Part shown: positions 1,322 through 7,076 of the stretch, piece by piece
How the letters are laid out: each line of letters begins with the position of its first letter
How positions within the stretch are numbered: the stretch's first letter is position 1
Notes under the pieces: model-generated
What the model saw: the letters and a program-made list of their open reading frames with translations, nothing else
Database searches by the model: none
What the model was told of the DNA's origin: nothing
Translations under genes and position numbers: made by a program
NCBI GenBank assembly: GCA_029246845.1
Contig: JAQWMJ010000036.1
Location: forward strand, 1-45,619
Direction: 5' to 3'
DNA: 45,619 nucleotides
Origin: Thermodesulfobacteriota bacterium
GTDB lineage: Bacteria; Desulfobacterota_D; UBA1144

Positions 1322-2401
1322 ATGTCATTTGCATATGCAGAAATTAATTTAGATAACCTTGAAAGAAATGTAGAAGCAATAAGGAATATCTTGGATGATG
1401 GAGTTGAGATTCTAGCTGTTGTAAAGGCTAACGCTTACGGACATGGCTCCATAGAAATAAGCAAGAAATTATCATCACTAAATATAAACAATCTCGCAGT
1501 TGCTACATATGAAGAAGCAATGGAGATAAAGTTGTCAGGAGTAAAAAGTGATATTTTAATACTTGGCTCTATAACCAACGAGGAGATAATTAGCTCAATC
1601 AACCAAGGAGTTCTCTTTACCGTGTATGACATCTCTCAGCTTTATTTCATCGATTCATTAAACCTTAGTAAGATTTCTTTTCATCTAAAGATTGATACTG
1701 GCATGAATAGGCTCGGGATTGATAGGGATCAAATAAAACAGTCAATAAATATAATAAAGAATAATCCCAACCTTTTATTAAAAGGGGTATACACACATTT
1801 TTCTGAATCTGGCATAGTAGATTCAAAATTTACTGAATCTCAAATTTATGAGTTTAATAATATTATTATAAGTTTTAAGGATTCGATACCCAATATAGAT
1901 TTTTTCCATACTTCAAACAGTTCAGGAATTATCAATTTCCCTAACTCACACTTTAATATGGCAAGGCCAGGTCTTGCCCTCTATGGCTTGTCTCCTGAAA
2001 GAAGTAATCAAATTGTTCCTGTCATGGAATTAAAGACTTCAATAGTTAAAATTAGAAATATTAAGAAAGGCGACTCGGTAAGCTATGGTAGAACTTTTAT
2101 TGCAAAAGAAGAAATGATGATTGGAGTTATTCCTATAGGATATGCAGATGGTCTACCTCGGGCACTTTCCAATAAAGGTAAAGTGACTTGTATGAATGAG
2201 AATTGTGATATTTTAGGAAGAGTATGCATGGACCTGACAATAATAAATTTATCAGAGATAGACAATCCTAAGGTTGGAGATGAAGTAATTATCTTCGGTG
2301 CGGGTAAAATAGATGCAAATCAAGTTGCAGATATAGCAGATACAATTCCATATGAGATAGTTTGTGGAATTAGTAAAAGAGTTAAAAGAGTTTACAAATG
2401 A
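1322..2401 (+). CDS. alr: alanine racemase
   Basis: PLP-lysine motif AVVKANAYGHG, plus HLKIDTGMNRLG, GYADG, GRVCMD and TIPYEIVC. Confidence 0.97.
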   Translation: MSFAYAEINLDNLERNVEAIRNILDDGVEILAVVKANAYGHGSIEISKKLSSLNINNLAVATYEEAMEIKLSGVKSDILILGSITNEEIISSINQGVLFTVYDISQLYFIDSLNLSKISFHLKIDTGMNRLGIDRDQIKQSINIIKNNPNLLLKGVYTHFSESGIVDSKFTESQIYEFNNIIISFKDSIPNIDFFHTSNSSGIINFPNSHFNMARPGLALYGLSPERSNQIVPVMELKTSIVKIRNIKKGDSVSYGRTFIAKEEMMIGVIPIGYADGLPRALSNKGKVTCMNENCDILGRVCMDLTIINLSEIDNPKVGDEVIIFGAGKIDANQVADIADTIPYEIVCGISKRVKRVYK

Positions 2402-3783
2402 GCAAATATATACTCTTTGTTTTCTTTGTTTTTCTAATCCCGATGAGCTCTCTATCTTATGAACAAACCTTTTTTGGACCTTTGCTAGAATTTAAAAAAG
2501 ACTCAGGTTCTAAAGTTTATGCTTTTCGTCCTTTATTTTATTATGAAGCTAACTACGAATTGAAATATAGGTCATTAGATATTCTATATCCGATGATGGG
2601 TTATCAAGAGGATAATCAACAAAATCAATTTCAAGCTCTTTTTTATCTTATAAGGTACAAAAATTTTAATGATTATGATAATTTGCAGGAAAAGACTTTT
2701 TCTATCTTTCCTATTTTGGATATCTCGTGGTCAGGGAAAAAAGAAAATGATTATTTTTCCTTATTTCCAATTTACGGGAACCTAAAAAATAAATTTACAA
2801 AAGATGAGATAAAATATTTTTTATTTCCATTGTATTTGAGCACTAAAGAGAAAAATTCTCATAATACGCACTTATTGTGGCCTATTGTGTCTAAAACTGA
2901 AGGAAAGTATGTTTCAGGATTTAAGCTATGGCCTCTTTTTGGATATATGAACAAAGTAGACATCAAGGGATCTAAAATAATCAAAGAGAGCAAGTTCTTT
3001 CTATGGCCTTTTTACAGCTATAAAAAAGATGATACTAAAGGACTGAATCTTGAGGAGAAGGCATATTTCCCTTTTTATCTTTCTTCCACTTCATCTATTC
3101 ATGAGGCCAGAACTTATTTATGGCCTTTCTTTAATGTTTATGTAGACAAGCTAAGGAATCAAAAAACATACAATATGCCTTGGCCTTTTGTCCAATATAA
3201 GCAAGGGGCTAACATTAGAAGCAAAAGATTTTTTCCATTCTATTCATATGTAAAAACCAAGAATGTTGAAAAAGGTTTCTTCTTATGGCCTATATATAAA
3301 TATAAGAATGAAATTTTAGGTACAGATTATTTTAAAACTAAAAGCTTTCTATTTTTCTTATACAAGCAAGATACATACTATGACTTAAGAAAGAATATAA
3401 TAAAAAAGGAGTTCTCTAGCTTTTGGCCTATATATTCTATTGATTCAGATCTAAATGGGTATGACCTTAGGATTTTCTCTCCTGTGGAAAGTTTTTTCTC
3501 TAACAATATAAAAGTAAGGAAAATATGGTCCCCTCTATGGTCAATATTAAGAATTAGAGATGATAATTTATCTTCTGAAGCTTCTATACTTTTCAATTTT
3601 ATAAGTTATAAAAATTATAAAATTGAAAAAAGAAAAAAGTTTAGTTTGAACTTTATTTTTCCTATTATTTCAAATGAATCACGAGTAAATTCAAATAAAT
3701 TTAATATTTTGGGTGGATTGGTGGGATTTGAAACTGGTGAGAAAACGAAAATTAGAATATTATATATACCTATAAGTTTATGA
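2398..3783 (+). CDS. exported hypothetical protein with ~20 [FL][WF]P[FIL][FY] repeats, encoded in the MCE operon
   Basis: 461-aa ORF with a signal-peptide-like N-terminus and recurring LWPF/FFPF/LFPI motifs. ATGA overlaps couple it to both alr and mlaE. Confidence 0.8.
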   Translation: MSKYILFVFFVFLIPMSSLSYEQTFFGPLLEFKKDSGSKVYAFRPLFYYEANYELKYRSLDILYPMMGYQEDNQQNQFQALFYLIRYKNFNDYDNLQEKTFSIFPILDISWSGKKENDYFSLFPIYGNLKNKFTKDEIKYFLFPLYLSTKEKNSHNTHLLWPIVSKTEGKYVSGFKLWPLFGYMNKVDIKGSKIIKESKFFLWPFYSYKKDDTKGLNLEEKAYFPFYLSSTSSIHEARTYLWPFFNVYVDKLRNQKTYNMPWPFVQYKQGANIRSKRFFPFYSYVKTKNVEKGFFLWPIYKYKNEILGTDYFKTKSFLFFLYKQDTYYDLRKNIIKKEFSSFWPIYSIDSDLNGYDLRIFSPVESFFSNNIKVRKIWSPLWSILRIRDDNLSSEASILFNFISYKNYKIEKRKKFSLNFIFPIISNESRVNSNKFNILGGLVGFETGEKTKIRILYIPISL

Positions 3784-4547
3784 GTAGTTTTGTAAAAATA
3801 ACAGTAGGAATAGGTGAATTTTTAGATCTTTTATGGAAGACTCTAAAATCAATTAAATATTTTTCAAACAATGCAGACAAGTTCTTTTATCAAGTCTTTG
3901 ATATGGGGAACAGGACTCTCCCAGTTGCAGCTCTTATTTCATTATCTATAGGATCCGTTTTAGCTTTGCAGACAGGAATACAACTTTCTGGGTATGGAAT
4001 AGAAGATAAAATTGGTGGCATTGTTGGACTTTCTTTATGTACAGAATTAGCACCTGTTATGGCAGCTATTTTGATGGCAGGCAGAGTTGGTTCTTCTATA
4101 ACCGCTGAAATATCATCTATGAAAATCTATGAAGAAATCTCAGCCTTAGAAACTATGAAGATTGATCCTGTAAGATTTCTTGTTCTTCCAAGGTTTCTTG
4201 CTTGCATTGTAACGTTACCTTTCTTGGTAATATATATGGATTTGATTGGATGGCTTGGAGGCTCCTTTGTTTCTTCTATGAATCAAACTATATCAGTCTC
4301 CTTTTCTTCATTCTATAATGATCTTAGTCAAGTGGTTACCATTTCAGATATTTCAGTTGGGATTATAAAATCTTTATTTTTCGCTGTAACGATTTCAATA
4401 GTATCATGTTCAGTAGGTTTACTCGCATCGGGGGGCCCTAGGGAAATAGGAAATTCTGTAACTAAGTCGGTTGTTGCTTCCTTTATATCTATTTTAGTCC
4501 TAGATTACTTTTTGACAAGATTGTTAATCCTAGTGGGTTTATTATGA
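3780..4547 (+). CDS. mlaE: MlaE-family ABC permease of an MCE transporter
   Basis: Motifs ELAPVMAAILMAGRVGSSITAEI, MKIYEEISALETM, DPVRFLVLPR. Confidence 0.95.
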   Translation: MSSFVKITVGIGEFLDLLWKTLKSIKYFSNNADKFFYQVFDMGNRTLPVAALISLSIGSVLALQTGIQLSGYGIEDKIGGIVGLSLCTELAPVMAAILMAGRVGSSITAEISSMKIYEEISALETMKIDPVRFLVLPRFLACIVTLPFLVIYMDLIGWLGGSFVSSMNQTISVSFSSFYNDLSQVVTISDISVGIIKSLFFAVTISIVSCSVGLLASGGPREIGNSVTKSVVASFISILVLDYFLTRLLILVGLL

Positions 4548-5257
4548 AAAATTTTTCTTCTATAAAATTAGACAAGGTTTCAAAGAGCTTTGATGGAAAA
4601 ACTGTTCTTGACCAACTGGACTGCGAATTTCTAAATAAAGAGGTTCATGTAATTCTCGGTAAATCAGGTACTGGAAAATCTGTATTATTAAAGATGATTA
4701 TTGGGCTTATAGCTCCTGATATTGGAAGAATCATCATAGACAATGAAGATATACATAAAAGTATTGAGAAGAACAATCTTATTCTATCTTATATTTTTCA
4801 GTCATCTGCCTTATTAAACTCATTAAGTGTTTTAGATAATATTACTATTTATCTTGATGAACATAGGATTGGTACCAAAGAAGAAAGGGCTAGTAAAGCA
4901 TATGAAATATTGTCAGACTTAGGTATTCAAGAAGCAGCACTAAGAATGCCTTCGGATTTAAGTGGAGGAATGAGAAAAAGGGTTGCTATTGCAAGATCCC
5001 TCATTATTGCCCCAGACATACTTCTATATGACGAACCTACGGCTGAGCTAGACCCAATTAATACCAAAATAATCTCACAAATAATCAACAAGTTAAAAAG
5101 TAAGAGCTCCATAACTCAGGTAGTTGTCACTCATGACATTGATTTTGCATATTCAATAGCTGATAAAATTTCGATTCTAGAGAATGGTAGCATAGTTGTA
5201 ACAGGCAATTCCTCAGATGTTAAAAATTCAAATAATGCAATTTTAGAGCCAATTTAG
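4544..5257 (+). CDS. mlaF: MlaF/Mkl-family ABC ATPase
   Basis: Walker A GKSGTGKS, signature LSGGMRKRV, Walker B LLYDEPT, H-loop VVTHD; lies between mlaE and mlaD. Confidence 0.95.
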   Translation: MKNFSSIKLDKVSKSFDGKTVLDQLDCEFLNKEVHVILGKSGTGKSVLLKMIIGLIAPDIGRIIIDNEDIHKSIEKNNLILSYIFQSSALLNSLSVLDNITIYLDEHRIGTKEERASKAYEILSDLGIQEAALRMPSDLSGGMRKRVAIARSLIIAPDILLYDEPTAELDPINTKIISQIINKLKSKSSITQVVVTHDIDFAYSIADKISILENGSIVVTGNSSDVKNSNNAILEPI

Positions 5258-5270
5258 GTAGAATGTTCAT

Positions 5271-6245
5271 ATGAATAGAAAAATGCAGCTAGGGACTTTT
5301 TTTGTTTTAGGAATCGTAACCCTTTTAGTTCTATTTGAGGTGGTATCAGGAGTTGACTTTTTGAAGAAAGAAAATACTTATACTTGTTACTTTTCTTCTG
5401 TTGGCGAACTTAGAGTTGGAAACGAAGTAAAGCTTTCAGGAGTTGAGGTTGGCAGGGTAAAGGAAATAACTTTGTCCGGCCAAAATGTTGCAGTCGTAGT
5501 TTCAATAGATAAAGACGTAATTTTAAAAGATGATTCTATTGCGTCTATTAACATGACTAGTCTCTTGGGAAGCACTTATGTTGGTATTACTTTTGGTTCA
5601 TCTAATTCAAGGATATTGAGTGATGGTGGGGTCATGCTATCTACTAAGCCAGTCGATTTTAATTCTTTGGTTGTTAAATTAGATAAAACCGTTGATATGT
5701 TTAATTCACAGCTATTTGAATATAATGACCAGATTAAATCAATACTTTCAAATTTAAATATAATTGTTTCTAATGTTGCTAATTCGAAGGGTACTATTGG
5801 AAGGCTTGTTAATGACCCTGGCATATATGAGGATTTGAAGTCCAGCTTAGACTTTTTCTCTAATATTACAAAAAAGATAGATCAAGGAGATGGAACCTTA
5901 GGCCTTCTTATCAACGACAAGTCTGTATACGATAAAGCGAAGAAGACTTTAGAAAAAATTAATATGCTTACAGATAAACTTGCTTCGGGAGACGGGTCTC
6001 TTGGAAAGCTGATTAATGATGAGCAGCTCTATAATTCTATTAATGACTTATCAAAGAATTTAAATTCTTTGGTGACAAAAATTAATTCTGGAGAAGGAAC
6101 TTTGGGCAAATTAATTAATGATGATAGGTTGTATTACGATGCATTAAATTCAGTTCGAAAACTTAAGAATGCAACTGAAACTCAAGAAGACCTTGCACCA
6201 TTGACAACAATCTCGGCAGCTTTTGGTGTCATGACTCTTTTTTAA
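5271..6245 (+). CDS. mlaD: MCE/MlaD protein with a long C-terminal helical repeat region
   Basis: N-terminal TM anchor, MCE domain (LRVGNEVKLSGVEVGRV; SLLGSTYVGI pore loop), then repeats. Confidence 0.92.
   Translation: MNRKMQLGTFFVLGIVTLLVLFEVVSGVDFLKKENTYTCYFSSVGELRVGNEVKLSGVEVGRVKEITLSGQNVAVVVSIDKDVILKDDSIASINMTSLLGSTYVGITFGSSNSRILSDGGVMLSTKPVDFNSLVVKLDKTVDMFNSQLFEYNDQIKSILSNLNIIVSNVANSKGTIGRLVNDPGIYEDLKSSLDFFSNITKKIDQGDGTLGLLINDKSVYDKAKKTLEKINMLTDKLASGDGSLGKLINDEQLYNSINDLSKNLNSLVTKINSGEGTLGKLINDDRLYYDALNSVRKLKNATETQEDLAPLTTISAAFGVMTLF
5784..6191 (+). repeat. four in-frame 34-aa (102-bp period) tandem repeats in MlaD, motif xxGT/SLGxLIND..Y
   Basis: Units start at 5784 (SKGTIGRLVND), 5886 (GDGTLGLLIND), 5988 (GDGSLGKLIND) and 6090 (GEGTLGKLIND). 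Confidence 0.9.
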
Positions 6246-6246
6246 T

Positions 6247-6699
6247 ATGGCGATTTATTCATCAAATCCAAATGCAAATAGAAACTTTCATATTGAGGAA
6301 AAGTTTGAGGCAGGCGTTGTGTTGTCAGGCTCAGAAGTAAAATCAACCAAAGATGGTCAATTAAGTATCAAAGAGAGCTATGCAATCATTAGGAAGGGTG
6401 AGGTTTTTGTTATAAATTCCTATATACCCAAATATAATAATTCATCATATTTTACTCATGAAGAAACAAGAGATAGAAAACTCCTACTCAATAAGATTGA
6501 AATTAGGAAGCTCATAGGTAAAACAAAGATTAAAGGATATACTCTCGTCCCTATAAGAGTTTATTCAAAAAAGAATCTTATTAAGTTTGAAATAGGGCTT
6601 GGAAAGGGTAAGAAGCTTTATGATAAGCGTGTCGATTTAAAAAAGAAAGACTTAAAAAGAGAGCTTAGAAGAGAATTTAAAAATAAAACTAGTATTTAA
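6247..6699 (+). CDS. smpB: SsrA-binding protein
   Basis: Motifs EAGVVLSGSEVKS, RDRKLLL, GKGKKLYDKR; directly upstream of tmRNA. Confidence 0.97.
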   Translation: MAIYSSNPNANRNFHIEEKFEAGVVLSGSEVKSTKDGQLSIKESYAIIRKGEVFVINSYIPKYNNSSYFTHEETRDRKLLLNKIEIRKLIGKTKIKGYTLVPIRVYSKKNLIKFEIGLGKGKKLYDKRVDLKKKDLKRELRREFKNKTSI

Positions 6700-6732: not shown

Positions 6733-7076
6733 GGGGGCGATTTGGTTTCGACGTAAATTTAGCATTTAGATGCTGCATGCCGAGAGCTAACTCGTAAAAC
6801 TGGCACTCGCACAATAAGTGCAGAACCAATCAATCAACTTGCTGCCTAGAATAGCGTAGCAACATTGAAGATAACTTTGCTCATAGGGTTTTCTTCAATG
6901 TCATTAATATGGGCCTGATAAAATTTTCTTCTCTGCTTTTTTATCAGTATATTAGAGAATCGAGATATCTTTTGTTTTTTAGCTACAAGAGATATTTTTA
7001 AAATCGAGCTAAAATAAGCATGTAGAGGCTCTATTTAGCTTATTTCCGGACCTGGGTTCGATTCCCAGCGCCTCCA
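6733..7076 (+). ncRNA. ssrA: tmRNA; tag reading frame 6820-6849 encodes AEPINQLAA*
   Basis: 5' GGGGGCG pairs with 3' CGCCTCC(A) and has the G3.U alanine identity pair. Also present: GGTTTCGAC near the 5' end, T-arm CTGGG-TTCGATT-CCCAG, resume context ATAAGT-GCA, and a tag ending in LAA. CCA is not encoded. Confidence 0.96.

Follow-up and report, generated by a model that had tools for sequence, protein, structure and literature searches.

PMC13631591 gives three kinds of outer-membrane partner for MCE transporters, namely a porin-like barrel, MlaA-like lipoproteins, and PqiC-like lipoproteins, and it also counts several systems that have no known partner. The DNA analyzed here, referred to as the window, is a stretch of 45,619 nucleotides (positions 1-45,619, forward strand) of contig JAQWMJ010000036.1 of a Thermodesulfobacteriota bacterium (GCA_029246845.1; Desulfobacterota_D in the GTDB lineage), in which mlaE, mlaF, and mlaD follow a gene for a probably exported protein of 461 amino acids that is predicted to consist of beta-hairpin repeats and is called the repeat protein below. 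This is a known transporter, with an ordinary MlaEFD core, that is accompanied by a new, structurally novel partner family and by a matching tail on MlaD. The repeat protein is co-inherited and co-located, and usually co-transcribed, with one MlaD subtype, and the conserved C-terminal tail of MlaD is specific to the subtype linked with it. As such, we consider the repeat protein very probably a partner of the MCE transporter.

An extra exported protein is likewise encoded with the MCE transporter in PqiC-like systems, exemplified by E. coli PqiABC and P. aeruginosa PA3211-PA3214. According to PMC13631591, the outer-membrane lipoprotein PA3214 has a hydrophobic groove in which its MCE partner PA3213 docks by a C-terminal peptide, and the MCE C-terminal peptide of PqiB is placed likewise in the hydrophobic groove of the lipoprotein PqiC. 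The window MlaD also ends in a conserved peptide, although docking was seen for PA3213 and the window peptide is recognized from sequence, and where related loci have the order mlaE-mlaF-mlaD-repeat gene, the repeat gene takes the position that PA3214 has after the MCE gene. A sequence-only reading of the window had placed the repeat protein in the role of MlaA/MlaC, and it is better described as standing in place of the PqiC-like lipoprotein of PA3211-PA3214-type operons. The protein itself is unlike PqiC, as it has neither a match to ABC_trans_aux (PF03886) nor a leader cysteine, consists of all-beta hairpin repeats over ~440 residues rather than forming a small alpha/beta lipoprotein, and belongs to a family in which most members have no lipobox (a crude pattern finds a lipobox-like motif in 11/97).

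In proteobacterial Mla, MlaA-OmpC/F and MlaC supply the outer-membrane and periplasmic steps for MlaFED, which is the role proposed here for the repeat protein. The window genome differs in that a six-frame search of its 1.04 Mb (54 contigs, 91.39% complete) gave no match to MlaA (PF04333) or MlaC (PF05494), so that the canonical MlaA-F set is not found, and in that its MlaD is long and tailed. The repeat protein has a different fold from MlaA and MlaC and no sequence likeness to them. Nor was PqiC/ABC_trans_aux (PF03886) matched anywhere in the genome, and the earlier statement that the cluster contains no mlaA, mlaB, mlaC, or pqiC-like gene can be extended genome-wide for all but mlaB, whose STAS domain was not searched for.

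Similarly, MlaEFD-only systems of the Veillonella parvula type share with the window a core without MlaABC (with the same proviso for MlaB) and an elongated MlaD. Systems of this kind in which MlaD is long have already been published, some with and others without an outer-membrane barrel, and most long MlaDs have no barrel, accessory proteins being suggested only as possibly needed in the accessible part of PMC10665443. Unlike the Veillonella type, the window MlaD carries helical repeats and a hydrophobic tail of ~20 residues in place of a C-terminal barrel, and a separate conserved partner is encoded beside it, of which that part of PMC10665443 makes no mention. A chimeric Mla-Pqi system is described for Brucella in the available text of PMC12436622. 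The architectures enumerated as characterized in the sequence-only reading, namely the MlaC shuttle, the PqiB/PqiC needle, and the LetB rings, were therefore an incomplete list, which omits the MlaEFD-only long-MlaD systems (PMC10665443) and the peptide-binding PqiC-like lipoproteins (PMC13631591). A word-matching search of open-access papers and bioRxiv returned no description of a hairpin-repeat MCE partner.

Linkage of the repeat gene to mlaE, mlaF, and mlaD

The features that make up the system in the window are as follows.

2398-3783, plus strand: gene of the probably exported beta-hairpin-repeat ("WP-repeat") protein, 461 amino acids; open reading frame, no Pfam or NCBIfam match
3780-4547, plus strand: mlaE, MCE ABC transporter permease; Pfam MlaE 9.4e-71, TIGR00056 219.5 bits (above cut-off)
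4544-5257, plus strand: mlaF, ABC ATPase; Pfam ABC_tran 6.9e-31
5271-6245, plus strand: gene of an mlaD-like MCE protein, 324 amino acids; Pfam MlaD 7.2e-19
6183-6242, plus strand: hydrophobic C-terminal tail of MlaD, last ~20 residues; tail profile with invariant Pro

MlaE permease, ABC ATPase, and MCE domain, all assigned by Pfam, are encoded in consecutive genes and constitute the MCE core. ATGA overlaps, read directly from the sequence, join the upstream alr to the repeat gene (2398-2401), the repeat gene to mlaE (3780-3783), and mlaE to mlaF (4544-4547), and 13 bases separate mlaF from mlaD. This confirms the overlaps at both ends of the repeat gene, which had been noticed ahead of mlaE-mlaF-mlaD and taken as translational coupling.

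The linkage extends well beyond the window. A sample of 120 species genomes from the window's phylum, all of one class, contains the repeat protein in 76, MlaE in 119, and MlaD in 116. The repeat gene is followed immediately by mlaE in 71 of the 76 (58 by listed coordinates, 7 by loci, and 6 by fetched regions); two further genomes (G062 and G063) have MlaD ~1.7 kb downstream of it, and the last three are contig-end fragments. Where class loci extend beyond the repeat gene, mlaE-mlaF come next in all 19, and many genomes of the phylum have two or three MlaE paralogs of which only one adjoins the repeat gene.

In a set of 80 Desulfuromonadales/Geobacterales loci, gathered with a five-sequence alignment, mlaE is directly downstream of the repeat gene in 68, and 62 of these also have mlaD. 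The 68 comprise 37 loci with mlaE-mlaF-mlaD, 25 with mlaE-mlaD, and 6 with mlaE only; the 12 loci in which no mlaE follows include two with less than 240 bases of room. The 25/80 loci of Geobacteraceae type (L030-L059) that have the repeat gene, mlaE, and mlaD show no mlaF between them, and it follows that the ATPase must be encoded elsewhere.

The wider phylum of the Desulfuromonadales/Geobacterales genomes was represented by 301 genomes, drawn evenly, with the repeat protein in 115, and neighborhoods were read in 56 genomes, taken as every second of 112 full-length hits. Here mlaE is downstream of the repeat gene in 4/56; the other 52 have unrelated housekeeping genes on that side, and in 46 of those 52 mlaD, usually as part of mlaE-mlaF-mlaD, lies directly upstream on the same strand. 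Linkage in this sample thus amounts to 50/56, mostly in reverse order. As both repeat-E-F-D and E-F-D-repeat are found, the same pair is kept together in two gene orders. In a third subfamily, known from soil, peat, and freshwater metagenome contigs, mlaE is directly downstream in 75/80 loci, and the remaining five have at most 138 bases downstream. Co-occurrence of homologs with MCE genes across genomes, which the sequence-only reading had made its first check, is thus found in all four samples (71/76, 68/80, 50/56, and 75/80). Homologs proved neither mostly unlinked nor members of a known unrelated family, and the repeat protein can be regarded as specific to the MCE system.

The C-terminal tail of the partner MlaD

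The window MlaD combines a transmembrane helix, the MCE domain, four helical repeats of ~33 amino acids, and the hydrophobic C-terminal tail, and at 324 amino acids it was rightly described as elongated. The AlphaFold2 monomer model is confident for the MCE domain, with pLDDT of about 50-60 in the repeats and <50 in the tail. The tail follows a simple pattern, in which an acidic residue and an invariant Pro precede ~12-15 small and hydrophobic residues. All distinct linked MlaDs (82/82) have this hydrophobic, Gly/Thr/Val/Leu-rich end after an acidic residue and Pro, the final residue is F or Y in 80/82, and the Pro is invariant in a 58-position profile covering the last repeat and the tail. 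The number of ~33-residue helical repeats ranges from 1 to 6 among partner MlaDs (215-362 amino acids), and the last repeat and the tail are conserved throughout. Unlinked MlaD paralogs of the window's phylum end in polar residues in 10/10 cases, and three Geobacter-type genomes whose repeat gene is unlinked each have exactly one tailed MlaD, their other paralogs being without a tail.

At a tail-profile cut-off of E <= 1e-16, the 301 genomes divide as follows.

Repeat protein present: tail present in 111, tail absent in 4
Repeat protein absent: tail present in 0, tail absent in 186

No tail-type MlaD without the repeat protein was found among these genomes. The best E-values are bimodal, with full-length matches at <=2.1e-17 and partial matches to the repeat alone no better than 1.4e-13, and of the four exceptions, three come from assembly breaks, with a contig end truncating MlaD in one case and falling at the repeat gene in two.

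By analogy with the C-terminal peptides of PA3213/PA3214 and PqiB/PqiC, the tail is probably a docking element. A co-fold of repeat protein residues 21-461 with MlaD residues 255-324, made with a separate alignment per chain and without controls, gave ipSAE values of 0.02 and 0.02 and a mark of 0.32, an outcome that counts neither for nor against binding.

Predicted fold and export of the repeat protein

Neither Pfam nor NCBIfam matches the repeat protein at E <= 0.1, 96/97 of the aligned family members contain no Pfam family, and no PDB sequence matches the family profile at E <= 1. Its description as uncharacterized therefore stands, in the sense that neither Pfam, NCBIfam, nor PDB sequences offer a confident match to a known family. 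It is far from rare, as a word-indexed search returned 1,101 relatives at E <= 0.001 and an exhaustive search returned 1,026 representatives at 50% identity, 145 of them at E <= 1e-30. Where relatives are named at all, they are called "hypothetical protein"; they come from metagenome-assembled genomes (MAGs) labeled Thermodesulfobacteriota, Candidatus Dadabacteria, Deltaproteobacteria, and Geobacteraceae and also from Geoalkalibacter subterraneus, and the ESM Atlas adds only unnamed clusters, which are commonest in Verrucomicrobiota and Thermodesulfobacteriota. An 850-amino-acid long form (P0237, P0286-P0289 set) carries an FHA domain in front of its repeats, and further long forms have 815-1,071 amino acids, two of them labeled Planctomycetota. 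Pfam found the FHA domain in one of 11 long members and nothing else, and a search for fused forms yielded four long proteins, none with a recorded MCE domain.

In the model, residues 2-12 make up a hydrophobic N-terminal helix without Cys, and 77/97 relatives show 10 or more consecutive hydrophobic residues within their first 45. The signal peptide proposed earlier is supported to the extent of this widely shared hydrophobic leader, an assignment from sequence rather than from a signal-peptide predictor, and Sec export of the repeat protein to the periplasm is likely.

The AlphaFold2 model (97-row alignment; mean pLDDT 95.1, pTM 0.82) consists of the leader helix, 44 strands in one antiparallel meander, and a short helical insert at residues 360-383. 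In the model the repeat unit is a hairpin of ~20 amino acids, of which there are ~22, and strands have 4-9 residues, mostly 5-6 with a mode of 6. The turns alternate strictly: the odd-numbered ones are hydrophobic in 22/22 cases, e.g., LWPF or FPI, with a mean Kyte-Doolittle value of +0.85, 2.7 aromatic residues each, and Pro in 16, and the even-numbered ones are polar in 21/21 cases, with a mean of -1.56 and Pro in none. In a meander sheet, this alternation would place the Pro/Trp/Phe turns on one edge and the polar turns on the other.

Foldseek against the PDB returned only rows for WD40/IFT, teneurin, and LRP6 proteins with TM <= 0.19, which were rejected as local hairpin likeness; a beta-propeller was dropped from consideration, given these rows and a repeat period of one hairpin (~20 amino acids). 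A structure search independent of Foldseek listed the CPAP G-box (Z 8.6, 159 residues aligned, rmsd 7.1 A) and MORN1 (Z 8.2, 164 aligned, rmsd 4.4 A), and rescoring of the Foldseek list placed engineered OspA single-layer sheets best (Z 9.0, 205-279 aligned, rmsd 14-17 A). The match to TamAB (9xdc_A) is partial, with Z 6.6 and only 85 residues aligned. The OspA central sheet, the CPAP G-box/TCP10 domain, and MORN repeats share with the repeat protein, as modeled, the long antiparallel meander of short strands in hairpins of ~20 amino acids. They differ from it in having no sequence relationship to it and no link to MCE transport, the matches are partial and the longest ones of high rmsd, and the strict hydrophobic/polar division of the two edges characterizes the repeat-protein family. 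The repeat protein has no Pfam match to the AsmA/TamB/YhdP families, whose bridge proteins carry a beta-taco groove. As modeled, it is of the hairpin-repeat, single-layer-sheet kind, without a global match among solved structures.

Lineage context and competing explanations

Three further features flank the system.

1322-2401, plus strand: alr (alanine racemase); Pfam
6247-6699, plus strand: smpB
6733-7076, plus strand: tmRNA gene, directly after smpB; tag peptide AEPINQLAA

The alr gene is upstream of the repeat gene in 20/20 class loci and in 5/6 further loci, the sixth ending at the gene, and it was not seen there in the loci of the other phylum that were examined; as this synteny is kept only within the window's phylum, alr is probably outside the system. 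RNA libraries of four marine studies contain contigs, 95-99% identical, that overlap each of the four genes in part and run across three junctions, namely alr/repeat-gene, repeat-gene/mlaE, and mlaE/mlaF. These give a weak indication that the four genes are expressed in close relatives, as DNA carry-over is possible in RNA libraries, and the runs are short contigs, so that uncovered parts of the region carry no meaning. The purH gene recurs as a neighbor: elsewhere in the window's phylum it adjoins the gene of a second, solitary MlaD whose end is polar (L113-L122), and in 6/56 sampled loci of the other phylum (L158, L160, L164, L165, L174, and L176) it comes after the repeat gene. Ahead of the solitary MlaE paralog of relatives lies an open reading frame of 182-205 amino acids, listed here for two loci.

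L109, 7169-7783, minus strand: open reading frame ahead of the solitary MlaE paralog; no Pfam family
L110, 7901-8446, minus strand: open reading frame ahead of the solitary MlaE paralog; no Pfam family

The window genome contains one MlaD match and one BamA, and profile searches gave no match to TamB, AsmA, YhdP, LptD, or LpxC; tblastn with the TamB of relatives also found nothing in it. Within the class, TamB is present in 0/19 genomes of the window's ~1-Mb family, its own genome included, and in 22/22 genomes of the other families, and LpxC occurs in 1/41 genomes (the window's and 40 relatives), as a 53-amino-acid fragment on a small contig. These absences rest on MAGs that are 77-94% complete, and Pfam may miss AsmA-like proteins. 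The lineage may be one of diderms that have no LPS yet keep an MCE system; a literature search on Dadabacteria and their outer membrane and lipopolysaccharide yielded nothing relevant.

When these results are placed together, the explanation we prefer, with moderate confidence, makes the repeat protein an exported partner dedicated to one distinct MlaEFD (MCE) subtype. After Sec export it would sit in the periplasm and bind the MlaD hexamer via the C-terminal tails, its hydrophobic edge may contact the outer membrane or lipid, and it could in this manner complete the route that is given elsewhere by MlaA/MlaC, PqiC, or an MlaD-borne barrel. The mechanism in full, comprising export, tail docking, and the distal role, seems to us reasonably probable and no firmer than that.

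Several observations weigh against this explanation. MlaE and MlaD occur without the repeat protein in 44/120 genomes of the window's phylum, from which it follows that the repeat protein would be needed by one MCE subtype only; one genus (36 genomes) is without it, and in loci from two genomes of that genus MlaE is solitary, as is an MlaD of another type. The repeat gene stands alone in 10/78 Desulfuromonadales/Geobacterales loci with room and is unlinked in 6/56 of the sampled wider-phylum genomes. In favor of the preferred explanation, all six of these genomes have an mlaEFD operon elsewhere and keep a tail-type MlaD (6/6), and three other genomes with an unlinked repeat gene likewise keep one elsewhere (3/3). 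In the wider phylum the core of the tail is kept and the last residues vary, many being R, K, Q, or N. The MlaDs that went into the tail profile were those beside the repeat gene, the E-value cut-off was set after the bimodal distribution had been seen, and the 301-genome table overstates the statistical weight, as related genomes are not independent. The overall length and curvature of the modeled repeat protein are derived from its secondary structure and from partial structural matches.

It is conceivable, if a good deal less probable than partnership through the tails, that the repeat protein itself crosses the periplasm, either as a bridge in which acyl chains slide along a long amphipathic beta-ribbon or as a soluble shuttle in place of MlaC. 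At 4.8 A per strand, its 44-strand meander could, if extended, reach up to roughly 200 A, and its best structural likenesses (OspA, CPAP G-box, and MORN1) are elongated single-layer sheets, although rmsd values of 7-17 A over long stretches leave the real curvature uncertain. Among the families of the window's phylum there is one whose partner MlaD has 215-218 amino acids and a single repeat, while the repeat protein keeps its full length; an MlaD of this size can hardly span the periplasm, which would favor a bridge or shuttle. The distribution of TamB within the class and the unmatched AsmA and YhdP of the window genome fit with this as well. Against it, the model features display a hydrophobic edge and no demonstrated hydrophobic groove, and the repeat protein matches no lipid-binding family. 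A more specific form, to which we give slightly less credence still, would make the repeat protein a new bridge-like lipid-transfer class, in which a periplasm-length amphipathic beta-ribbon, alone or bundled around the MlaD tails, carries phospholipid and is powered by the MlaFE ATPase. If this were true, it would be the only lipid route to the outer membrane in the window's 1-Mb lineage, which would be a diderm without LPS.

An all-beta, probably exported protein in a genome that encodes BamA also invites comparison with a BAM-assembled integral outer-membrane beta-barrel serving as a lipid exit or entry pore, and partial structural matches to BtuB, FadL, porins, and LptD were listed at Z 5-7. 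These matches cover 80-170 residues only and are no better than the rest of the list. BAM-dependent barrels have membrane strands of about 9 or more residues and a C-terminal beta-signal with an aromatic end. The repeat protein departs from them on both counts, as its strands are too short to span a membrane and, with F or W as the last residue in only 9/97 members and polar C-terminal extensions in many, the usual beta-signal is absent. A classical outer-membrane barrel is therefore unlikely, and as the site of lipid exit or entry we regard it as the least credible explanation considered. Scarcely more credible is the suggestion that the repeat protein is not a working part of the transporter and is instead an assembly chaperone, a regulator, a peptidoglycan-spacing factor for the MlaD needle, or a product of operon inertia. 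The 16 examined loci with room in which the repeat gene is alone would be in keeping with such a role, but the pair is kept together in two different gene orders and co-occurs at genome level in 111 cases against 0 over 301 genomes. The repeat protein is also retained in streamlined 1-Mb genomes, which makes mere operon inertia very unlikely, more so than a chaperone or regulatory role.

In conclusion, for most bacteria the connection between MCE transporters and the outer membrane is an open question. As a dedicated partner of one MlaEFD subtype, the repeat family would add a fourth, structurally new kind of MCE partner, which comprises ~1,000 clusters and shows near-perfect co-inheritance with one MlaD subtype. 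As its carriers include cultivable and genetically tractable relatives of Geobacter, with Citrifermentans bremense, Geomonas, and Geoalkalibacter as cultivable, non-pathogenic examples, the question is directly testable. In the streamlined marine lineage of the window, the repeat-protein system may be the main inter-membrane lipid route.

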